A DNA stretch of 64,000 nt from Candidatus Micrarchaeota archaeon (GTDB lineage Archaea; B1Sed10-29; JAJSAI01): assembly GCA_964625085.1 (NCBI GenBank), contig CAZVAJ010000001.1:37708-101707 (forward strand). Reading direction: 5' to 3'. A program made the position numbers and the translations under genes. The notes under the pieces are model-generated. The model had not been told where the DNA came from and did not search any database. It was given only the letters and a program-made list of their open reading frames with translations. Shown here in pieces: positions 3,767 to 37,569 of this stretch. Every line of letters starts with the position of its first letter. The stretch's first letter is position 1.

Positions 3767-4791
3767 ACAAAATGACCCAAACAGAACAAAGAAAAAATGA
3801 TCATATCGTCATGTGCCTGTCTAAAAAAGTAGAATCAGGAAGCACTTGGCTAGAGCACGTGAAACTCGTGCACTACAGTCTGCCTGAAATAGACTTTAAC
3901 AAAGTGAATCCAGGCACAGAGTTCCTCGGTAAAAAGTTTAAAATGCCAGTCATGATAACTGCAATAACCGGAGGAACAAAGCGTGCGCAGGAGATTAACA
4001 GAAAAATCGCGCGCGTTGCGCAAGAAAAAGGAATCGGAATGGGGGTAGGAAGCCAACGGATTATGATAGAAAAACCTGAAACCAGCGAAACCTTCCAGGT
4101 CAGGGACATAGCCCCAGACGTATTCCTGGCAGGAAACATAGGCGCTTATCAAATAAAACAGTACTCGGCTGAGCAGGTGCTAGAAGCAGCTGACAGAATA
4201 GAAGCTGATGCTCTGTGCGTCCACCTGAACGCTGCCCAAGAAGTATTCCAGCCAGAAGGGGATACTGATTTCTCAGGATGCTTGAACGCATTATCTGACC
4301 TGTGCAAAGCTGCAAAAATCCCAATAATAGCAAAAGAAGTGGGGAATGGAATAAACAAACAGGTGGCAGAAGAGCTCAAACAGGCAGGGGTAAGCGCGAT
4401 AGACACAGAGGGAGTAGGCGGAACGAGCTGGATCCTTGTTGATTCTCTCAGGGGAGGACCTGACCCAACAGAGTTCCTAGACTGGGGACTTCCAACAGCC
4501 ACATCTGTTCTTGAATGCTCAAGAACAGGACTGCCTGTAATCGCTTCAGGAGGCATACGCTCCGGCTTAGACATCGCCAAAGCAATATCCCTTGGAGCAA
4601 GCTTGACTGGATTCGCACTGCCAGCGCTGAAAGCAACAGAAAAAAATGAACTGAACAAACTACTAGACAAAATAGAGTTTGAGCTTAAAACAACCATGTT
4701 CCTAACCCGGTCCAGCGATCTCGAAAGTCTCAAAAAAGCAGACAAGGTTATCTCAGGACCGCTTAAAGAGTGGATAACACAAAGAAAATAA
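3763..4791 (+). CDS. fni: isopentenyl-diphosphate delta-isomerase, type 2 (FMN-dependent)
   Basis: N-terminal RKNDHI signature and TIM-barrel glycine-rich motifs typical of IDI-2. Confidence 0.85.
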   Translation: MNKMTQTEQRKNDHIVMCLSKKVESGSTWLEHVKLVHYSLPEIDFNKVNPGTEFLGKKFKMPVMITAITGGTKRAQEINRKIARVAQEKGIGMGVGSQRIMIEKPETSETFQVRDIAPDVFLAGNIGAYQIKQYSAEQVLEAADRIEADALCVHLNAAQEVFQPEGDTDFSGCLNALSDLCKAAKIPIIAKEVGNGINKQVAEELKQAGVSAIDTEGVGGTSWILVDSLRGGPDPTEFLDWGLPTATSVLECSRTGLPVIASGGIRSGLDIAKAISLGASLTGFALPALKATEKNELNKLLDKIEFELKTTMFLTRSSDLESLKKADKVISGPLKEWITQRK

Positions 4792-4839
4792 ACAAGAACA
4801 CCGTGTGTGTACGCAAAGGAGTAGAAAGAGGAGACGCAG

Positions 4840-28735: not shown

Positions 28736-28804
28736 GTGTAATCTCTTCTGAGGTTACACTCAGTTCAGCTTCTTTTGGGCTTTGGGGGCTCCTCTCCCCC
28801 CAAA
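28736..28804 (+). terminator. two tandem stable hairpins with a T-tract between tyrS and the PolD operon (putative terminator or attenuator)
   Basis: GTGTAATCTC-ttct-GAGGTTACAC at 28736..28759, and TTTGGGGG-ctcctct-CCCCCAAA at 28781..28804. CTTCTTTT lies between them. Confidence 0.3.
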
Positions 28805-28836
28805 GTCCTGCCAAAAACAGTGGACAGTGTATAGTA

Positions 28837-30311
28837 TGAATGGAAGTGAGGCAGTAAACATCCTTCAGGAAAAAGGGTTTCTCCTCGCTCCAAAAACTAT
28901 CGAACTCGTTCTGTCAGCCGAGAACCCTGAAGAGATAGTAAACTTAGTTCTGGAAAAGTGTTCTGGAAAAACATTCATCCTTCCAGAAGACCTAGAAGAA
29001 AAAACAAAAACCAAGATCTCTCCTGAGAAAAAAGAGCAGCCAGTTATCGTAGAAAAAGCAAAAACATTCAAACCACTTGCAGAGGAGATAGAAGCAAGAG
29101 TAGAAAAAATGTGTGACTCCGAAATCCTAAGCAGGGGCAATGTCAAAGAATTCGTGGAATACTTCCAAGACCGTTACAATAAACTTGTCTCAGTCCTCAG
29201 GAGAAGAGGCAGCATAACAAAAGTCAAGGACATCCGGAAAAAAACCGAAAGAGAACTTAGAATTGCAGGTCTGGTCTACGAAAAGCGAAGAACAAAAAAC
29301 GGGCATCTGATGATCACAATAGAGGATGACACAGGCATGATAAACCTGCTGGTCCCGAAAAGCGATGCACAACTCATGGCCACCGCAGAAAACACTCTGC
29401 TCGACAGCGTGATTGCAGTGGACATAAGAAAAACGAACGGAAGCCTGCTAATCGCTAAAAAGATAATAGAGCCGGGAGTTATGAGGCAAGACACACCCTC
29501 TGCAGGAGAAGAAGTCATGGCGGCGGTGCTTTCTGACCCTCACGTAGGAAGCAAGCTGTTCATGAAAGAAAACTTTGAGAAGATGATCGCCTGGCTTCAA
29601 GGAAAAACAAGTCACGAGAAATATCTGAGGATAGCTGAAAAAGTAAAGTACATTGTTGTAACAGGAGACCTGGTTGACGGTATTGGAGTTTACCCAGGGC
29701 AAGAAAACGAACTGGAGTACACAGACATTTTTGAACAGTATCAAAAATTCTCAGAATACCTGCTCGAGATACCTGAATACATCCACATCGTGATAATCCC
29801 AGGCAACCACGATGCTGTACGAACCGCTGACCCGCAGCCAGCAATACCCTTAGAACTATTACCTGAACTAAAGAATACCGGCAACATCCATCTTGGAACA
29901 AGCCCCAGCACATGGAACATTCACGGTATAAAAACACTCGTGTACCATGGGACAAGCTTTGATGACATTGTTGCCAACATAAACAGTGCAACATACAATG
30001 AGCCTGAAACCATACTAGAAAAAGTGCTCATGACAAGACACCTACATCCATACTACGGCGGAAAACCAATAATCCCAACAGAACACGATTCGCTTGCAAT
30101 AAACGAACTTCCAAACCTCATGTTAACAGGACACATTCACAAGAATGCGTATCTGCAGAAAAACGGGTTGCTGGCAGTAAACGGAGGGACATGGCAACAG
30201 ATAACACCATATCAACAAAAGCAGGGGCACAAACCAACACCCTGCCAACTGCCCGTTATAGACCTTAACAGGATGAACATAAAAGTAGTTCACTTTGACA
30301 GGGGAGCATGA
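28837..30311 (+). CDS. polB: DNA polymerase D small subunit DP1 (Mre11-like 3'-5' exonuclease)
   Basis: Calcineurin-like phosphoesterase motifs GDLVDGIG and GNHD with a DP1-type N-terminal domain. The TTG at 28782 inside the hairpin is unlikely to be the start. Confidence 0.8.
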
Positions 30312-33300
30312 TGAACACATTGCTTGAAAGAACAGAGTGGTACTGGCAACACATGCAAGATAAAACAGAAGAAGCCTACAAGATAGCGGGAGCAGCAAGA
30401 GCAACTGGAAAAGACGTATCAACCAAAGTAGAGATCCCTCCTGCAGCAGATCTTGCAGCAAGAGTAGAAGGACTAGTCGGACCCAAAGGAGTAGCAGAAA
30501 AGATCAGAGAACTGCTGAAAGAAAACGATAGAGACACAATGACCCTAAGGATCATAGACCTGATAGTAAAAGGGACATTTGGGAAGTATGAAACAGAGGA
30601 GCAACTGGCAGAACAGTGCATTCGAACAGGGCTCGCAATAATAACAGAAGCAGTACCTGCCGCAGCCACAGAAGGAATCTCCCACACCAAAATCCTAGAC
30701 AACCCTGACGGCACAAGATGCCTTTCCGTGTACTACGCCGGACCAATAAGGTCAGCAGGAGGAACTGCTGCCGCTCTTTCAGTGGCTCTCGCAGACTACA
30801 CCAGAAGAAAAATGGGCCTGCAGGAATACAGACCCTCAAAAGAGGAAGTTGAAAGGTATGTTGAAGAAATAGGATTATACCATAACCTTGTTTCTAGGCT
30901 CCAGTACAATCCCCCTGAAGATGACATCAGACACATTGTCTCAAACTGCCCTGTTTGTGTAAGTGGAACACCCACCTCCGAACTTGAAGTAAGCGTTTAC
31001 AAGAACCTTCAGAGAATGGAAACAAACAGAATAAGGGGGGGAATGGCCTTAGTAATAGCAGAAGGAATAGCCCAAAAAGCAGCTAAGCTGCTGAAGTACT
31101 CCAAAAAATTTGAGCTCGGGTGGGACTGGATAGAAGCGATAGTCAAGGTAACAAAAAAAACAGGGGAAAAGAGAGAGATAAAACCAGTAACAAAATATCT
31201 CTCAGACATTGTGGGAGGCAGGCCCATATTCGCGTACCCCAGTCAAACAGGAGGACTCAGAATAAGGTACGGGAGAAGCAGGAACACAGGCCTTAACGCA
31301 AAAGGAGTGAACCCTGCCACGATGTACCTGACGAACGAGTTCATGGCCATAGGAACCCAACTGAAGCTCGAGCGGCCGGGCAAAGGGTGTGTCACGGTCC
31401 CTGTGAGTACTGTAGAAGGGCCCACGATCCTTCTCGACAATGGAGATGTAGTAAAAGTAAACACAGCCTCTAAAGCAATGGAAGTAAAAGACCGCGTTGC
31501 AGAGATTCTCTTCCTAGGAGACATCCTAATAAGCCACGGAGACTTTCTCAAATCCAACCACCCTCTTGTAAAACCAGGCATATGCGAAGAATGGTGGCAG
31601 CAGATATGTAAAGAGAGGGGTATAGGCGTTAATGACGCGTGGAACGTCAGTTCTGAAAAAGCAGTGGAACTGGCAAGGCAAGGTGCCCCAATGCACCCGA
31701 AGTACACATATTTTTACAATGCAGTGTCTTCAGACGATTTGCTTGAAATGGCAAGATGGCTCTCGAATGGCAGGATAACAAAAATGCACGGGATTGCAGG
31801 AGAACAAAGCAGGGTACTGGAAGTAGAAGTGTCAGAAGAAAAAAGGACTCTTGAAAGAATAGGTGTACCCCACAAGCTCAGAGGAGGAAAAGTGATAATA
31901 GAAGAAGCAGGCCCTCTGATAGAAACACTCTGCCTCACGCACATCAATGATCTATCTCTTCAAGAAGAAAACGTCCTTGAGTCTTTATCAAAAGCGAGCG
32001 GCATGGAGATAATGGAAAAAGAAGGCACATTCATCGGAGCCAGGATGGGCAGGCCTGAAAAAGCAAAACCAAGAAAAATGAACCCGCCCCCGAACCTGCT
32101 ATTCCCAATAGGAAAAAACGGTGGGAAGACAAGAACACTGCTAAAAGCAGCTGAGAAAGGAGTGATCTCAGTAGAAGCGGTCAGGTTGAAATGCCCTAAG
32201 TGCGGCAGGGAAACCATGAGCTATTACTGTCATGATTGCGGAGTGAGGACCGAAAGAGTATTCACCTGCACAAAGTGCGGCAAAAAAGGAAAATCAGAAA
32301 AATGCCCTTACTGCGGAGAACACGCAATACCCTACGCCTTCTTGCCATATGACCTGAAAAAAGCTGTGAAAGACGCTGAAAACAGGTTAGGAGAAAGGAC
32401 TCCTGAAAAAACAAAAGCAGTAGAAGGCTTGATAAACGGAGAAAAGATATTCGAGCCCATAGAAAAGGGAATACTGCGCGCAAAACACAATGTAGTAGTA
32501 TTCAGGGATGGAACAATAAGATTTGACGCAACAAACCTTCCCCTCACGCACTTCAAACCAAGGGAGATAGGAATAAGCGTAGAAAAGGCCAGAGAAATTG
32601 GGTACACGCATGACAAAGACGGTAAGCCCCTTGAAGACCCTGACCAAGTATGCGAGATGTTCGTGCAGGACATGATAATACCTGCAGAATCTGCTGAATA
32701 CATCCTCTCAGCAGCACAGTTCGTTGACGACCTGCTTGAAAAGTTCTATGGACTCCCAAGATACTATAACGCAGAGAAACCCTCTGACTTGGTAGGCCAT
32801 CTTGTGATAGCTCTAGCGCCCCACATCTCGGTCGGCGTTCTTGGAAGAATAATCGGGTTCAGCAGGGCCAGAGGAACCTACGCTCATCCGTACATGCACG
32901 CCGCATGCAGAAGAGACTGCTTTTCTCCGGAGGAAACCCTCCCGGTCTACGACGGGAAAGAGTGGAAAATAGTACAGATAGGCCCGTTCGTCGAGTCCCT
33001 GCTCTGCAGAAGAGAACCTAGAAAGACAGAGTTCGGAGACTGGGTGCTCCCGGTCGAAGGATACTATACTCTCGCCCTGAACCCCAAAACAAGAGAGTAC
33101 GAGCTCAAAAGGATCACTGCTTTCTCGAAACACGTTCCCCAGGACCACATGGTGGAAATAGTCCTCTCTGACAACAGGAAAATAAGGACCACAGGAACCC
33201 ACAAGTTCCCTGACCCTTCCTTTGGCAGGGTAAGAGCGCACGAGCTCGAGGAAGCATTGGTTCCGATGAAATTCAACATTCCTGAAAAAGATCCTGAAAG

Positions 33301-35107
33301 CATAGACTTGATGAACGCAAGAATAGAAGGGCTCATGGTCAGAGGAGCTGCGGGAATCCTTAGAAAATGGGTTCAGGAAAACGGAGGGTTCACCAAAGCC
33401 TCTGAAAAAATAGGCATCCCAAGATCCACTCTCTCAGATTACTGTTACAGGGACTCAGTCCCAGCAGAACTTCTGAAAACGCTTGGCTTGAAGGCGCCTG
33501 AAAACACAAGGGTTGGAGTGAAAAAAGATCATGTCACGCTTCCCAGGATCATCAGAGTAGACGAGCACTTGGCCAGGCTTCTCGGCTTCTACGCTGCAGA
33601 GGGCTACGCGCGGCACAGGGACAGAGAATACCAGACCGTCTTCTGCAACAAGAAACTAAAAGAAGGGGTCAAAAAAGAGCTGGAAAAGGCGCTTGGGATC
33701 CAGAAAACGTGGGAGAACGAATACGAGCTCGTGGTATCAAGCAGGATAATGTACGAGCTGTTCACGCGGGTCCTGGGCGCTGGAAAAAACGCCTACGAGA
33801 AGAGGGTTCCAAGCGTGCTTCTTGGGGCTAGAAAAGAGCTTGTCAAAGAGTTCCTCAGGGCCTACTTTGCTGGAGACGGGTGCATCTCCCGCGCAGGCAA
33901 CAGATCGCCTGAAGTATCCTGCACCAGCGTCTCCAAGATGTTGCTGAGGGATATCGAATTTCTACTAGCGCGCTTCAGCATAGCCACAAGCTGGTACGGG
34001 GCAGAACGGACTTCAAAAGGAAACGGGGTTGTGGCGTCCTGGTACTCAGAAAGGGGAAGGATCCTAACGACAAAAGAGTACAAGCTGAGGATGTACTCTG
34101 AAAACGCCAAGAAGTTCGTGGAAGAAGTAGGATTCTGGGATCCTGACAAGAACGCTAAAGCGAGAAAAATCCTGAGCGAGGCCAGGATCAAGGGCTCGAA
34201 AGCGAGGGTGGTGGGAGAGTCTAAAATCGTGCGGGCGAAGGAGATTAGAATAACCGAGAACAAAGAACTTGCACCCTCGTACAACCTTACTGTTGAAGAC
34301 CATCATAATGTAATAACTTCAGGAATCACAACCTTCCAATGTGACGGTGACGAAGACGCGTTCATGCTGTTACTTGACGCTCTCCTGAACTTCAGCAGAA
34401 GATACCTGCCAAGCTCAAGAGGCGGCACGATGGACGCGGCCATCGTGCTGACAACAAAAATAGACCCTGGAGAGGTGGACGATCAGGTTCACGAAATGGA
34501 CATAGTTTCAGAGTATCCTCTTGACTACTACCAAGCAGCGTGCAACAACCTAAACCCTTCTGACGTGAACGTGGAGCTAGTCAAAGACAGGCTGGGAACA
34601 AAAGAACAGTACTATGGAATGAAGTACACCCATGATACTGATAGGGTTGATGAGGGTCCTGTAGAATCAGCGTACACGACCCTAAAAACAATGGCTGAAA
34701 AAGTTGAGAAGCAGCTTGAGCTAGGGGAAAAGATCTTGGCAGTTGATGAAAGGGACCTTGCCAGCAGGGTGATTAACTTTCACTTCATGCGTGACATGAT
34801 GGGAAACCTAAGAGCATTTGGCCAGCAGGCCGTTAGGTGTGTTGATTGTAACAAAGTGTACAGGAGAACACCTCTTGCAGGAAAGTGCGTAAAATGCGGA
34901 GGGAGACTGGTACTGACAGTGAGCAAGGGAGGCATAGTAAAGTATCTTGAAGTCTCCAAAAACATTGCCAAAAAATACCACCTGTCCGACTACCTGAAAC
35001 AAAGGCTCATACTAATAGAAAATGATGTGAAAAGTTTCTTCGAGCTTGAAGAAATGGAAAAACGCGCAGAAGCAAAGAAACAGAAAAGCCTGGCTGAATT
35101 CGTGTAA
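30308..35107 (+). CDS. polC: DNA polymerase D large subunit DP2, interrupted in-frame by an intein
   Basis: 1599 aa. DP2 conserved blocks including HPYMHAA-RRD | CDGDEDAFMLLLDALLNFSRRYL and C-terminal zinc fingers CVDCNKVYRR...CVKCGG. A 474-aa insertion sits at the RRN/CDGDEDA site. Confidence 0.85.
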   Translation: MMNTLLERTEWYWQHMQDKTEEAYKIAGAARATGKDVSTKVEIPPAADLAARVEGLVGPKGVAEKIRELLKENDRDTMTLRIIDLIVKGTFGKYETEEQLAEQCIRTGLAIITEAVPAAATEGISHTKILDNPDGTRCLSVYYAGPIRSAGGTAAALSVALADYTRRKMGLQEYRPSKEEVERYVEEIGLYHNLVSRLQYNPPEDDIRHIVSNCPVCVSGTPTSELEVSVYKNLQRMETNRIRGGMALVIAEGIAQKAAKLLKYSKKFELGWDWIEAIVKVTKKTGEKREIKPVTKYLSDIVGGRPIFAYPSQTGGLRIRYGRSRNTGLNAKGVNPATMYLTNEFMAIGTQLKLERPGKGCVTVPVSTVEGPTILLDNGDVVKVNTASKAMEVKDRVAEILFLGDILISHGDFLKSNHPLVKPGICEEWWQQICKERGIGVNDAWNVSSEKAVELARQGAPMHPKYTYFYNAVSSDDLLEMARWLSNGRITKMHGIAGEQSRVLEVEVSEEKRTLERIGVPHKLRGGKVIIEEAGPLIETLCLTHINDLSLQEENVLESLSKASGMEIMEKEGTFIGARMGRPEKAKPRKMNPPPNLLFPIGKNGGKTRTLLKAAEKGVISVEAVRLKCPKCGRETMSYYCHDCGVRTERVFTCTKCGKKGKSEKCPYCGEHAIPYAFLPYDLKKAVKDAENRLGERTPEKTKAVEGLINGEKIFEPIEKGILRAKHNVVVFRDGTIRFDATNLPLTHFKPREIGISVEKAREIGYTHDKDGKPLEDPDQVCEMFVQDMIIPAESAEYILSAAQFVDDLLEKFYGLPRYYNAEKPSDLVGHLVIALAPHISVGVLGRIIGFSRARGTYAHPYMHAACRRDCFSPEETLPVYDGKEWKIVQIGPFVESLLCRREPRKTEFGDWVLPVEGYYTLALNPKTREYELKRITAFSKHVPQDHMVEIVLSDNRKIRTTGTHKFPDPSFGRVRAHELEEALVPMKFNIPEKDPESIDLMNARIEGLMVRGAAGILRKWVQENGGFTKASEKIGIPRSTLSDYCYRDSVPAELLKTLGLKAPENTRVGVKKDHVTLPRIIRVDEHLARLLGFYAAEGYARHRDREYQTVFCNKKLKEGVKKELEKALGIQKTWENEYELVVSSRIMYELFTRVLGAGKNAYEKRVPSVLLGARKELVKEFLRAYFAGDGCISRAGNRSPEVSCTSVSKMLLRDIEFLLARFSIATSWYGAERTSKGNGVVASWYSERGRILTTKEYKLRMYSENAKKFVEEVGFWDPDKNAKARKILSEARIKGSKARVVGESKIVRAKEIRITENKELAPSYNLTVEDHHNVITSGITTFQCDGDEDAFMLLLDALLNFSRRYLPSSRGGTMDAAIVLTTKIDPGEVDDQVHEMDIVSEYPLDYYQAACNNLNPSDVNVELVKDRLGTKEQYYGMKYTHDTDRVDEGPVESAYTTLKTMAEKVEKQLELGEKILAVDERDLASRVINFHFMRDMMGNLRAFGQQAVRCVDCNKVYRRTPLAGKCVKCGGRLVLTVSKGGIVKYLEVSKNIAKKYHLSDYLKQRLILIENDVKSFFELEEMEKRAEAKKQKSLAEFV
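32918..34339 (+). mobile_element. intein in DP2 with LAGLIDADG homing endonuclease; Cys1, TxxH block B, C-terminal ...TTFQ (Gln, no penultimate His), +1 Cys
   Basis: Begins CFSPEE directly after extein RRD. Block B is TGTHKF. The two LAGLIDADG motifs are LLGFYAAEGYA and FLRAYFAGDGCIS. Block G is YNLTVEDHHNVITSGITTFQ, followed by extein CDGDEDA. Confidence 0.75.
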
Positions 35108-35118
35108 CAGCTAATAAA

Positions 35119-35877
35119 CTAGAATCCTCCGCCGAGAAGCAGGTATATCAAAACAGCGAGCATTAAAAATATCATGGCCCACCTGAACCATGGCTTTGAA
35201 AGAATGCCTTTACCTTCTCCTTTTTTGGAGGCGGTCTTGCCAAGCACGCTGAACGTTTTCTTCAAAAGAACTGCCCAGCCCTTGGGGCTCTTCATCAGGT
35301 CAACGGTCTCTTTTAGCATGTCCTTCCATGTCTTCTCCTTGATGGGAATCTCTGACTCGTTCAGGATAACCCCGCTGAACCCGTCAACGTCAAGCTTGTA
35401 GAATCCTGCAGGCATGGAAACGAAAACTCTCCAAACTGGCCAGTAGATTATCCTGAACCCGCTTGTCTTAACGCTTTCTTCACCAACTCCGAACTTGCCT
35501 GCAAGCCTTCTTGCAGCAGTCTCCTTTGCTTCGTCTGCTTTTATGGCTGGAGGAACTGCAATAAACTTTAAATCATGTGAAACTTTCTTCTCAAAAGAAA
35601 CAGGCTGCCGGTCAAGAAGTTCTGTTATCATAGGCTGTAGTTTTCCTGAAGACGCATCCATAGCCATGGTTCCCGAAAACCCTTGGGAAAACGTTTGGCC
35701 TTGAAGCTCTTGCTCTACAAGAACATCATAATTGAAAACATAAAAAGGAAGATAATACAGCTTAAGGCTGCTTATCTCAAAGTCTGTCCACCTCTTGCTC
35801 CTCAGGCTCTTGTCAACGGTTTCCACAACATCGTCAACAAGGTACCTGAGGACAAGGGCTGGCTTGTCAAGGATCAA
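35119..35877 (-). CDS. hypothetical protein with C-terminal tail-anchor TM helix, co-oriented directly downstream of sepF
   Basis: 252 aa, soluble-looking apart from the final WAMIFLMLAVLIYLLLGGGF helix. Starts 7 nt after the sepF stop. Confidence 0.4.
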   Translation of the reverse strand: MILDKPALVLRYLVDDVVETVDKSLRSKRWTDFEISSLKLYYLPFYVFNYDVLVEQELQGQTFSQGFSGTMAMDASSGKLQPMITELLDRQPVSFEKKVSHDLKFIAVPPAIKADEAKETAARRLAGKFGVGEESVKTSGFRIIYWPVWRVFVSMPAGFYKLDVDGFSGVILNESEIPIKEKTWKDMLKETVDLMKSPKGWAVLLKKTFSVLGKTASKKGEGKGILSKPWFRWAMIFLMLAVLIYLLLGGGF

Positions 35878-35883
35878 GCCCTA

Positions 35884-36234
35884 TCACTTTTTGGATATTT
35901 TTATCCTGCTCGGGGTCAAAAGGACCTTCTCTTCAGTTATCCTTGCTATATCCCCGTCCATTTCTAAAACTGCTCCTTTAAGCTCTGAGATCGCTTGCTT
36001 TAGCTTTACTGTGTTCTTTTTGTACAATGGGCTGATGTTAAGAAGGATTATATTTCCTCTCCTGAGCTCGGATGTAATATCCTCAACATCACCTACAGAT
36101 TCCAGAGTCAGGGGCTTTACCCACATATCAGCATGCTCTTCAAGAAGATCCTCTTCTTCAAGCGCAAGATTGTCCAAATAGTCTTCTATGTCAACACTTT
36201 TGTTTGATTTTAGCTTACCCAACAGTGCAGGCAT
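35884..36234 (-). CDS. sepF: cell division protein SepF (DUF552)
   Basis: 116 aa with LRRGNIILLNISPL and GAVLEMDGDIARITEEKVLLTP, matching SepF core motifs. Confidence 0.7.
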   Translation of the reverse strand: MPALLGKLKSNKSVDIEDYLDNLALEEEDLLEEHADMWVKPLTLESVGDVEDITSELRRGNIILLNISPLYKKNTVKLKQAISELKGAVLEMDGDIARITEEKVLLTPSRIKISKK

Positions 36235-36357
36235 TGCATTACCTCCAGCTATTTTATTAGTTATTTTTTAGTCACAGTAGTTTAAAACACTTACCATAAA
36301 AAACGTTTTTATACTAGTAGTCTTATAATTCCTGTAACCTTTTTTTGGTGGGGGAAA

Positions 36358-37569
36358 ATGGATATAGAGGACCTGTTTGAAAAAGAAATGCAGAAAGACA
36401 CCGTCTTTCTGGACCGGAACGTTCTAAGCCCCCATTTTGTTCCAGAAACGCTTCCCCACAGAGACAAACAAATACAAGAGCTCATGCAAAAGCTGGCTCC
36501 CTCGCTTTCGGGAAAAACAATAAGCAACATTTTCTTGTACGGAAAAACAGGCACTGGAAAAACAGTGTCCACAAAGCATGTTATCGACAAGCTAATGGCC
36601 GTGAAAAAAAAGTACGGTGCCAGCGTAGAATGCGTTTACACCAACTGCAGAATCCTTAACACAAAATACCAGGTGATGCTTAAGGTAGCAGAATACTGCC
36701 ATCCTGATGAATCGTTTCTCGGGTTCCCTTTCTCGCACCTGTTCCAAAAAATAGTGGACTACGTGCAGTCTAACTCTTTGGGCCTTATACTGGTGCTTGA
36801 TGAAGTTGACAAAGTAAAAAACCTGGATGACTTGGTTTACACAATAACCCGGGCCAATGACGAGCTTGCGGCCGGCGGGATAAGCATGATAGGCATTTCT
36901 AACAACATAGCGTTCAAGGAATCGCTTGACCCGCGGAGTAAAAGCGCTCTTTCAGAAGACGAGATAGTCTTCCCGCCGTACAACGCAGAAGAGCTAAAAG
37001 ATATTTTGGAACAGAGGGTAAAACTTGGTTTCAAGCAGGGAACGATTGACGAGTCAAGCATAAACTATGCCAGCGCGCTCGCGGCCAATGAATCAGGAGA
37101 CGCCAGGTATGCCCTCAGGCTATTGTTCAAAGCCGGTGAAATAGCAGACCTGGAAGGAGCAAAAAAAGTGACTGACAAACACGTTGAACTCGCAAGAAAA
37201 GGGGTTGAGAACGAGATAGTGTACAGTGTTGTGAAAACACTTCCAGAACACCAAAAAATCCTTCTTCATGCAATAGCCCAACTTTCTAAAGAAGGAGGAC
37301 ACTACGCGAGGCTTGATGGCACAACAGCAGAAAACGTGCTGTTCACAGGAGAAGTATACGACAGGTACAACAAGATCTGCAGGGTTCTTGGAAAAGAGCC
37401 CAGGACCGCGAGATGGTGCAAAGAGTACATGAACGAGCTTGAAATGCTTGGGCTCATTACCACCACCATTTCAGGAAAGGGAGTTAGAGGCAACACAACC
37501 TTGATACGGTTAGCTTATCCTGCACAGAACATCATAGACCTAATGAAAAAACAGTTTGGAGGAGAATAG
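36358..37569 (+). CDS. orc1: Orc1/Cdc6 replication initiator (403 aa, canonical length)
   Basis: Walker A GKTGTGKT, Walker B LVLDEVD, sensor motifs and a C-terminal winged helix. An AT-rich TATA-like upstream region lies at 36235..36357. Confidence 0.85.
   Translation: MDIEDLFEKEMQKDTVFLDRNVLSPHFVPETLPHRDKQIQELMQKLAPSLSGKTISNIFLYGKTGTGKTVSTKHVIDKLMAVKKKYGASVECVYTNCRILNTKYQVMLKVAEYCHPDESFLGFPFSHLFQKIVDYVQSNSLGLILVLDEVDKVKNLDDLVYTITRANDELAAGGISMIGISNNIAFKESLDPRSKSALSEDEIVFPPYNAEELKDILEQRVKLGFKQGTIDESSINYASALAANESGDARYALRLLFKAGEIADLEGAKKVTDKHVELARKGVENEIVYSVVKTLPEHQKILLHAIAQLSKEGGHYARLDGTTAENVLFTGEVYDRYNKICRVLGKEPRTARWCKEYMNELEMLGLITTTISGKGVRGNTTLIRLAYPAQNIIDLMKKQFGGE

Follow-up and report, generated by a model that had tools for sequence, protein, structure and literature searches.

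The two subunits of the archaeal DNA polymerase PolD are encoded next to each other in the window (i.e., the whole 64,000-nucleotide stretch of DNA analysed here), where the end of the small-subunit gene (DP1) and the start of the large-subunit gene (DP2) overlap by 4 nt; the same DP1-DP2 order was found at the orthologous locus L003. The DP2 gene is interrupted in frame by an intein, and the parts of the locus are as follows.

28782..30311, + strand: gene for the PolD small subunit DP1 (Pfam DNA_pol_E_B and Metallophos), adjoining DP2 upstream
30308..35107, + strand: gene for the precursor of the PolD large subunit DP2, whose 1599 aa include the intein (ORF list, Pfam and NCBIfam DP2 equivalog models)
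30308..32917, + strand: N-extein, aa 1-870, in gapless alignment with the orthologue P0154 and with solved PolD chains, all intein-free
32918..34339, + strand: intein of 474 aa, Cys1 to Gln474 (aa 871-1344 of DP2), delimited by the MAFFT gap in P0154, the break in the blastn alignment and the AlphaFold model
34340..34357, + strand: Cys+1 and the ensuing DGDED of the PolD catalytic loop, whose D-G-D Asp pair corresponds to P. abyssi D956 and D958
34340..35107, + strand: C-extein, 255 aa plus stop codon, aligned end to end with P0154 and carrying the C-terminal zinc finger (Pfam zf-DPOE)

All three PolD DP2 Pfam domains (PolC_DP2_N, PolC_DP2_central, and PolC_DP2_cat) matched the flanks with E values of 1e-105 to 1e-129, the match to the catalytic domain being broken into two by the insertion, and the NCBIfam model of intein-containing DP2 (NF011303) scored 1538 bits with the whole 1599-aa protein and 195 bits with the intein alone. 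In P. abyssi PolD, D956 and D958 serve as catalytic residues, and inteins are known to occupy this loop (PMC4996933). A genome-collection scan with the extein alignment placed the host DP2 nearest to Micrarchaeota-type (DPANN) sequences. Elsewhere in the window, an Rfam scan over its whole length found no rRNA or tRNA, and a search of the SepF-Cdc6 intergenic region for repeats as a possible replication origin returned weak two-copy matches only.

The earlier note on this DNA had placed a 474-aa insertion at the RR(N/D)-CDGDEDA site of DP2, and the alignments bear this out to the codon. On the plus strand, 32918-34339 translates into 474 stop-free codons (CFSPEE...GITTFQ), while stops abound on the minus strand, and the insertion point lies between RRD and CDGDED. 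The closest orthologue, P0154 ('MAG: archaeon isolate Dive96_bin4.413', JAJSAI010000019.1), is intein-free, has exteins 80% identical to those of the window, and shares the gene order aaRS, DP1, DP2, hypothetical, SepF, and Cdc6; its gap in the MAFFT alignment covers exactly aa 871-1344, and the blastn alignment is interrupted at nucleotides 2612 and 4033 of the gene. Solved intein-free PolD chains likewise run from RRN into CDGDED without interruption, such that in-frame removal of the 474 residues restores the conserved host sequence. An identical 1599-aa protein was called on four contigs, including a 112-kb contig of an ENA metagenome assembly and a Logan assembly from a different run. The same protein thus came out of independent assemblies and the insertion is therefore not a chimera; although the segment is higher in GC and GC3 than its flanks, a misassembled fragment of another genome is extremely improbable for an insertion that keeps the reading frame to the codon and lies where dozens of other DP2 genes have homologous inteins.

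The splicing domain of the intein is made up of four recognizable blocks, for which the column counts below come from an alignment of 58 non-redundant inteins recovered at the DP2 site.

32918..32956, + strand: block A (CFSPEETLPVYDG) with the nucleophile Cys1 (Cys in 58/58; TIGR01445 intein_Nterm above cut-off)
33173..33208, + strand: block B (NRKIRTTGTHKF) with Thr92 (Thr in 47/58) and His95 (His in 57/58)
34274..34321, + strand: block F (PSYNLTVEDHHNVITS) with Asn456 (position F:4) and the block-F His, His463; contains HHN
34322..34339, + strand: block G (GITTFQ) with penultimate Phe473 and terminal Gln474

Cys1 corresponds to Cys871 of the DP2 precursor, and the block B motif TTGTHKF contains the T-x-x-H signature as T92-G-T-H95. 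In block F, Tyr455 falls in a column with Tyr in 57/58 inteins and His463 in one with His in 29/58. The C-terminal context reads ...SYNLTVEDHHNVITSGITTFQ followed by CDGDEDA, in which Cys+1 is Cys1345 of the precursor (codon TGT at 34340-34342; Cys in 56/58). The string that the earlier note took for block G does precede Cys+1, as claimed, although it consists of block F followed by block G. The Pfam Intein_splicing match reached 35.9 bits (cut-off 35.8), and both TIGR models, intein_Nterm and intein_Cterm, exceeded their cut-offs. The canonical C-terminus of an intein is His-Asn. Here, the terminal residue is Gln, with Phe473 in place of the penultimate His (G:6), a feature that is typical of class-1 inteins and not defining for them; Cys1, the T-x-x-H of block B, Cys+1, the in-frame insertion, and the predicted HINT fold are all those of a class-1 intein, and Gln474 is an accepted variant of a C-terminal residue able to cyclise (PMC4031507). 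By eye, the upstream HHN resembles a canonical His-Asn ending, and the earlier note had itself raised it as an alternative C-terminus; the alignments refute this, as Asn464 is followed by Val, which is incapable of being a nucleophile at +1, a splice at this point would retain VITSGITTFQ within a catalytic loop where P0154 and all solved PolD chains pass directly from RR(D/N) to CDGDED, and the H-N pair belongs to block F, 10-11 residues from the end, in the alignment of 58 inteins, so we give this terminus virtually no credence.

Between the two halves of the splicing domain lies a homing endonuclease domain with the following parts.

33344..33487, + strand: small helical, HTH-like insert separating the splicing half from the endonuclease core (model helices 145-154, 157-165, 169-178, and 183-189)
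33569..33610, + strand: LAGLIDADG motif 1 (LARLLGFYAAEGYA) with catalytic Glu228 (Glu/Asp in 54/58), aligned with LLGYYVSEGYA of PI-PkoII
33788..33814, + strand: endonuclease segment NAYEKRVPS with Lys295, aligned with KRIPEFV of PI-PkoII
33842..33889, + strand: LAGLIDADG motif 2 (VKEFLRAYFAGDGCIS) with catalytic Asp320 (Asp/Glu in 55/58; Pfam LAGLIDADG_3)

The core of motif 1 is LLGFYAAEGYA, the string carrying Asp320 in motif 2 is FLRAYFAGDGCIS, and the Pfam LAGLIDADG_3 match had an E value of 7e-19; between the two motifs, Lys295 and Pro298 lie in columns where these residues occur in 56/58 and 54/58 inteins, respectively. The Cys1 start, block B, and both LAGLIDADG motifs that the earlier note had listed are thus all present, and the acidic catalytic residues, which it had suggested checking, are kept. 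The AlphaFold model of the intein (pLDDT 91.2, pTM 0.90) predicts a HINT fold, with rmsd values of 1.8-3 Å over about 120 columns to mini-intein structures, and matches full intein endonucleases too: Foldseek searches with this model retrieved PI-PkoII (E 4e-30, TM 0.69), TliVMA (E 2e-21), PI-PfuI (E 4e-18), and PI-SceI, as well as the P. abyssi (Pab) PolII intein 2LCJ (E 1.5e-5, rmsd 2.5 Å over 123 columns). The endonuclease is modelled as a two-lobed alpha-beta-beta-alpha-beta-beta-alpha fold, for which Foldseek matched I-DmoI, I-Tsp061I, the I-OnuI family, and intein endonucleases. The helical insert gave weak Pfam matches to HTH_psq and the CI-repressor HTH (E 0.004-0.009, below cut-off) and may be an accessory DNA-binding region.

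An exhaustive HMMER search with the intein sequence gave 1986 matches and replaced a less sensitive word-indexed protein search (3 matches). The best HMMER matches with extein sequence (E 3e-76 and weaker) were DP2 inteins at the same junction, the nearest relatives being 36-49% identical and nothing recovered exceeding 49%; a scan of GTDB species representatives with the intein alone found no relative. The pol-IIa allele, to which this junction belongs, has been reported from 75 halobacterial and 16 other euryarchaeal genomes, with 80 archaeal DP2 inteins overall (PMC4071816, PMC4760082). Among the 58 inteins aligned at the site, Gln was the commonest terminal residue (27, followed by Asn with 19, Arg with 7, and Asp with 4), and the terminal residue co-varied with position 4 of block F. 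The penultimate residue was His in 11 and Phe in 4, with 47 lacking His, and it varied (H, F, G, K, S, and others) even inside the clade of the window intein; 20 of the 27 Gln-ending inteins have no penultimate His, and the Phe-Gln ending recurs. The earlier note was thus right that the terminal Gln is preceded by Phe instead of His, while the rarity that it implied for this ending does not hold at this site. Given the known site and the common Gln ending without penultimate His, the intein is therefore a member of a known family and not a new kind of element. In a neighbour-joining tree, it groups with DPANN inteins and not with the Thermococcales clade, and it is mainly through the endonuclease region and the fold that homology to the Thermococcales sub-clade is seen; it is a divergent member (at most 49% identity) of the family, probably of DPANN lineage. 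We consider it very likely, as a full explanation, that this is a bifunctional class-1 intein of the pol-IIa family in the archaeal PolD DP2 catalytic loop at RR(N/D)-CDGDED, with splicing and mobility as proposed below.

By analogy with its studied relatives, the intein would splice autocatalytically. The dp2 gene would be translated as a 1599-aa precursor that is presumably incompetent for polymerisation, because the intein sits one residue ahead of the catalytic Asp-Gly-Asp. An N-to-S acyl shift at Cys1, aided by Thr92 and His95 of block B, would come first, and attack of the resulting thioester by Cys+1 would give a branched intermediate. Gln474 would then cyclise to a glutarimide and free the intein, with His463 of block F as the most likely helper at this step because Phe replaces the usual penultimate His, and a final S-to-N shift would rejoin the exteins into a 1125-aa DP2. 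Cyclisation of Gln would not be new chemistry, having a precedent in Pab PolII.

Once free, the 474-aa protein would act as a monomeric LAGLIDADG endonuclease with two motifs and an additional small helical domain, cutting dp2 alleles that lack the intein at a target spanning the insertion point (empty site ...TGCAGAAGAGAC joined to TGTGACGGTGAC...), and repair of the cut would copy the intein into the empty allele (i.e., homing). Both LAGLIDADG acidic residues, Lys295, and the two-lobed fold are intact, without internal deletions relative to homologues, which is consistent with a homing endonuclease that is active. The GC3 of the intein is 0.599, compared to 0.478 +/- 0.041 for 41 window genes (z = 4.2 against coding windows of equal length), and this deviation of about 4 SD suggests that the intein arrived fairly recently and that amelioration is incomplete. 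Empty sites are also at hand, as in P0154 and, by a strict motif test, in 80 of the 119 nearest DP2 homologues. A different outcome would be that the intein splices while its endonuclease is dead or decaying, making it a vertically inherited passenger on the way to a mini-intein (cf. Pab, P. horikoshii [Pho], and most haloarchaeal pol-IIa inteins). Mini-inteins are indeed frequent at this site, e.g., P0169 (187 aa), Pab, and Pho, many halobacterial pol-IIa inteins are mini-inteins (PMC4071816), and our scans of JGI metagenomes with an exact 24-mer and a degenerate empty-site pattern found no intein-minus allele of the same population, such that intein-plus/minus polymorphism was not detected. 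Weighed against the intact catalytic residues and fold, the GC3 that is 4 SD off the host, and the empty closest orthologue, we regard a decaying endonuclease as unlikely, though it is the best placed of the alternatives, and favour a bifunctional intein with an endonuclease that is probably still active.

The Phe-Gln ending leaves room for two further readings, both of them less probable. Changing Gln to Asn in Pab PolII made C-terminal cleavage 20-fold faster, and the penultimate His is absent in about 5% of functional inteins (PMC4031507); with Gln for Asn plus a lost penultimate His, the third step may be slow in the window intein. It could be supposed that Gln-ending DP2 inteins without penultimate His use an uncharacterised cyclisation arrangement (with the block-F His alone, or with no His in about half of them), that their slow or condition-gated splicing limits active PolD, and that the window intein is a natural full-length, possibly homing, DPANN-like representative of them; we see this as a long shot. 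Slightly more doubtful still is that the ending itself is an adaptation, i.e., that slow or conditional splicing (redox, temperature) tunes how much active PolD is available. Splicing of the Pab and M. marisnigri PolII inteins is controlled by the redox state of Cys1/Cys+1 or of internal disulfides (PMC3922620), Pho PolII has been proposed to regulate PolD production (PMC8229266), and Gln prevails at the site. However, the penultimate residue varies freely even within the clade of the window intein, which looks like relaxed constraint and not like a tuned switch, and most close DP2 relatives are intein-free. We thus retain the reading of an ordinary pol-IIa intein that would splice by Gln cyclisation, perhaps slowly.

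For biology at large, little changes, as earlier work has already documented PolD catalytic-loop inteins, a C-terminal Gln, and a missing penultimate His. What the locus provides is a clean case of an occupied site beside an empty orthologous one in an uncultured DPANN-related archaeon, and the survey adds that a terminal Gln lacking the penultimate His is the rule and not the exception at this site. The endings HQ, FQ, GQ, KQ, and others form a natural series that biochemists could use to test what aids Gln cyclisation, and the endonuclease is one further candidate rare-cutting enzyme.

Among known systems, the nearest relatives are DP2 inteins of other DPANN archaea, i.e., P0005 (Micrarchaeota, MBN2477957.1), P0012 (Aenigmarchaeota), P0027 (Woesearchaeota), and the metagenomic P0001, P0004, and P0010, which occupy the same site and have their domains, helical insert included, in the same order, at 36-49% identity. 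Their endings are FQ (P0001, P0010), GQ (P0004, P0012), HQ (P0005), and KQ (P0027), and none is close enough to belong to the same species-level intein lineage. The proteins that carry them are annotated merely as 'DNA polymerase II large subunit', and none has been studied. The pol-IIa allele of Halobacteria and other Euryarchaeota is of the same DP2 catalytic-loop family, from which the window intein differs in its Micrarchaeota-type host DP2 and its identity of at most 49%.

The studied inteins most like it in position are the PolII mini-inteins of Pab and Pho (2LCJ, 5BKH, 7OEC), which are inserted after ...HAAKRN and before CDGDED and have His-Gln endings (PMC8175363, PMC8229266), in agreement with the 2LCJ sequence; what the earlier note said of Pab PolII was accurate, and the intein in the window is indeed full-length, with a LAGLIDADG domain, and occupies the DP2 site of Pab. 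They share with the window intein the host protein, the RRN-CDGDED junction, Cys1, Cys+1, the C-terminal Gln, the T-x-x-H of block B, the block-F His followed by Asn, and the HINT fold. They differ in having 185 and 166 residues, a linker replacing the endonuclease, and in ending in His-Gln, whereas the window intein has 474 residues and ends in Phe-Gln; sequence similarity between Pho PolII (5BKH) and the window splicing domain is marginal (E 0.013). The Methanoculleus marisnigri PolII intein also has a C-terminal Gln and splices, as do those of Pab and Pho (PMC4031507, PMC8175363). The suggestion of the earlier note that the window intein could be a relative or ancestor of the Pab class that bears an endonuclease is not supported: versions of the Pab mini-intein with an inserted endonuclease are already present in databases, such as P0042, which is far closer to 2LCJ (E 7e-52) than the window intein, and the tree places the latter with DPANN. 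For the whole protein, the closest solved structures are PI-PkoII, the PolB intein endonuclease of Thermococcus kodakarensis (2CW7; phmmer E 5e-17), PI-PfuI, TliVMA, PhoVMA, and PI-SceI, each with a HINT domain split by a two-motif LAGLIDADG endonuclease. These five end in His-Asn, and they differ from the window intein in their host proteins and insertion sites, at about 19% identity, and in their accessory domains.

The insertion in PolD DP2 is a genuine, intact-looking homing intein, residues 871-1344 of the precursor, numbered here Cys1 to Gln474 with Cys+1 as the first C-extein residue. The gene and its surroundings in the window are organized as follows:

28782-30311: DP1 gene, directly upstream of DP2
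30308-35107: PolD DP2 precursor ORF, a single 1599-aa frame enclosing the intein
32918-34339, + strand: intein, an unbroken 474-codon frame (CFSPEE...GITTFQ)
35119-35877, - strand: 252-aa ORF with no Pfam match
35884-36234, - strand: SepF homologue
36358-37569, + strand: Cdc6/Orc1 gene

On the strand opposite the intein, translation gave stops throughout. Downstream of dp2, near 36000-36500, GC drops as low as 0.39. Archaea would be expected to have a replication origin beside Cdc6, but a repeat scan of this region found no convincing origin-recognition-box repeats.

The exteins, 1125 aa in total, matched the Pfam N-terminal, central, and catalytic DP2 domains (E 1e-105 to 1e-129), with the catalytic-domain match broken in two by this insertion, the only intein in the protein. 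The intein itself matched LAGLIDADG_3 (E 7e-19), Intein_splicing, and TIGR intein_Nterm and intein_Cterm, and scored 195 bits against NF011303, the curated NCBIfam model of intein-containing DP2. Each motif listed in the earlier note was found at its position, except that its block G string proved to consist of block F (PSYNLTVEDHHNVITS) and then block G (GITTFQ).

Judged by sequence comparison, the intein boundaries are exact. Intein-free PolD chains of solved structures (6HMS, 5IJL, 6T8H, and 6KNB) run uninterrupted across the junction, as does the closest database DP2, P0154, an intein-free orthologue from “MAG: archaeon isolate Dive96_bin4.413” (GCA_024274695.1) with 80% identical exteins and the same gene order (aminoacyl-tRNA synthetase, DP1, DP2, hypothetical, SepF, and Cdc6). 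The MAFFT gap in P0154 corresponds exactly to residues 871-1344, and by blastn gene nucleotides 19-2612 and 4033-4800 align to contiguous positions of its locus, the sole ambiguity being 2 nt because both Cys codons share TG. An assembly chimera is ruled out, as four contigs encode the identical 1599-aa product, among them contigs of an ENA assembly and of a Logan assembly from another run. An intein C-terminus at the upstream HHN is likewise ruled out, since the next residue is Val, which is no nucleophile, and the motif falls in block F when 58 homologous inteins are aligned; the terminus lies at Gln474. Separately, DP2 at the orthologous locus (L003:2221-5601, JAJSAI010000019.1) is called as two ORFs because of an in-frame TAG at the codon aligned with Glu252 of the window DP2 precursor (VIA*GIAQ vs VIAEGIAQ), which may reflect sequencing error, pseudogene formation, or recoding.

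An exhaustive HMMER scan covering 1.84 billion representatives returned 1986 matches to the intein, the best just 39-45% identical (49% for P0010, a C-terminal fragment, over the part covered), and nearly all of the strongest matches with flanking sequence were DP2 with an intein at the identical junction. All that is new about the window intein is its divergence and its origin in a lineage with little sampling. Its AlphaFold model, built with six relatives (pLDDT 91.2, pTM 0.90), best matched bifunctional intein endonucleases in the PDB (PI-PkoII, E 4e-30, TM 0.69; TliVMA, PI-PfuI, PhoVMA, and PI-SceI), followed by mini-inteins, including that of Pyrococcus abyssi PolII (Pab; 2LCJ, E 1.5e-5), and free-standing LAGLIDADG enzymes. 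The endonuclease keeps its catalytic acidic residues, Glu228 and Asp320, a point that the earlier note proposed to check.

Residues kept in the window intein, with counts in an alignment of 58 non-redundant inteins at the DP2 junction
Cys1, first nucleophile: 58/58
Thr92, block B: 47/58
His95, block B: 57/58
Glu228, LAGLIDADG motif 1, catalytic: acidic in 54/58
Lys295, endonuclease: 56/58
Asp320, LAGLIDADG motif 2, catalytic: acidic in 55/58
Tyr455, block F: 57/58
His463, block-F His: 29/58
Cys+1, second nucleophile: 56/58

Between the N-terminal splicing half and the endonuclease core lies a short helical stretch (residues about 143-190), which gave weak, sub-threshold HTH matches and is a putative accessory DNA-binding element.

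In P. abyssi DP2, D956 and D958 of the catalytic loop are essential, and this loop is a recognised intein site (PMC4996933). With the loop written as N954-C-D956-G-D958 (numbering matching 6HMS), the window intein is placed one residue ahead of the equivalent D-G-D, and the precursor must therefore splice for active polymerase. We infer both splicing and endonuclease activities: by the standard class-1 pathway, an acyl shift at Cys1, helped by Thr92 and His95, would be followed by trans-thioesterification by Cys+1, cyclisation of Gln474 (with precedent in the Pab, P. horikoshii (Pho), and M. marisnigri PolII inteins), and an S-to-N shift, and the excised intein would target empty alleles as a LAGLIDADG homing endonuclease. 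These three Gln-ended inteins splice, slowly, and in Pab a Gln-to-Asn change gives 20-fold faster C-terminal cleavage (PMC4031507, PMC8175363); the Pho structure shows a distance of 3.4 A between the terminal Gln and the block-F His, the proposed activator of that Gln (PMC8229266). Because the window intein retains that His, His463 likely assists Gln474 cyclisation where a penultimate His is missing.

The Phe-Gln ending, implied by the earlier note to be unusual, is not so at this junction, where the 58 inteins end in Gln (27), Asn (19), Arg (7), or Asp (4). A penultimate His, absent in about 5% of functional inteins (PMC4031507), occurs in just 11/58 and is missing in 20 of the 27 Gln-enders, 9 of which keep the block-F His, as does the window intein, and 11 of which have neither. 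Phe-Gln also ends P0001, P0010, and P0077. The window intein forms a pair with P0004 (Gly-Gln) in a neighbour-joining tree, with P0005 (His-Gln, Micrarchaeota), P0001, and P0017 (His-Gln) as sisters, so the penultimate residue flips inside its own clade.

Across the same alignment, the last residue of the intein and block-F position 4 vary together: position 4 is Ser, Cys, or Asn in 26/27 Gln-enders (Asn456 with Gln474 in the window intein), Asp in 12/19 Asn-enders and in all four Asp-enders (P0076, P0104, P0138, and P0148, ending Y/I-D), and Cys in all seven Arg-enders, six of which have Lys at the usual block-F His place. The full Arg-ended set comprises eight representatives at or below 50% identity (P0049, P0068, P0071, P0078, P0086, P0089, P0101, and P0169, the last a 187-aa mini-intein) at the junction RR(N/D)|CD(G/S)DE, with the consensus ...SYC(L/F)D(I/V)...K(N)VLW(G)NQL(L)x(I)R|C. 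They form a single clade, joined by the Asn-terminated P0107, and recur across many independent assemblies, where one member lies on a contig of 1.37 Mb, with named hosts among Pacearchaeota, Woesearchaeota, “DPANN group archaeon”, and Thermoplasmatota. No other junction restores the RRN-CDGDED catalytic loop. The C-terminal residues that reviews list for inteins are limited to Asn, Gln, Asp, and Glu, and no Arg-terminated intein turned up in a full-text literature search; we speculate that cleavage might proceed via Arg delta-lactam formation.

After P0154, the next closest DP2 exteins share 51-54% identity with those of the window, and their named carriers are Micrarchaeota, other DPANN, or unclassified archaea, which places the window in an uncultured archaeon near the Micrarchaeota/DPANN group. 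By a strict motif test, the site is continuous in 80 of the 119 nearest DP2 homologues. Intein GC3 is 0.599 vs a mean of 0.478 +/- 0.041 for 41 window genes (z = 4.2 against equal-length coding windows) and 0.469 for the flanking exteins, and C-ending codons are favoured relative to these exteins (ATC 0.50/0.26, TTC 0.78/0.56, TAC 0.94/0.73). The codon shift fits a donor with higher GC than the present host, and the deviant GC3 together with the empty orthologous site fits arrival by homing from a donor that differed in composition. JGI metagenome scans found no empty allele of the window lineage. Among the 39 homologues failing the RR[ND]CDGD motif, three were examined: P0169 and P0006 fail because each carries an intein, and P0155 reads RRN-SDGDED, with Ser replacing the Cys used as +1 nucleophile. 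Substitution at this position could make DP2 more or less prone to invasion by Cys+1-dependent inteins, or affect how these splice.

The site of the window intein is the “pol-IIa” allele, known from 75 halobacterial and 16 other euryarchaeal genomes, in the second most intein-rich archaeal protein (80 inteins; PMC4071816, PMC4760082). A second large DP2 insertion downstream of the pol-IIa intein, in P0011 (2181 aa), P0014 (2154 aa), P0062 (2156 aa), P0060, and P0093, probably corresponds to the allele that PMC4071816 calls pol-IIb. The statement in the earlier note that Pab shares this host site and ends in Gln was borne out, for Pho as well, although both mini-inteins have a penultimate His where the window intein has Phe. 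The suggestion that the window intein could be the endonuclease-bearing counterpart of the Pab class did not hold: its splicing domain matches Pho (5BKH) at E 0.013 only, and that role is instead fitted by P0042, which matches 2LCJ at E 7e-52 with a LAGLIDADG domain separating its halves exactly at the Pab linker position, and to which P0041, P0063, P0081, and P0095 are similar.
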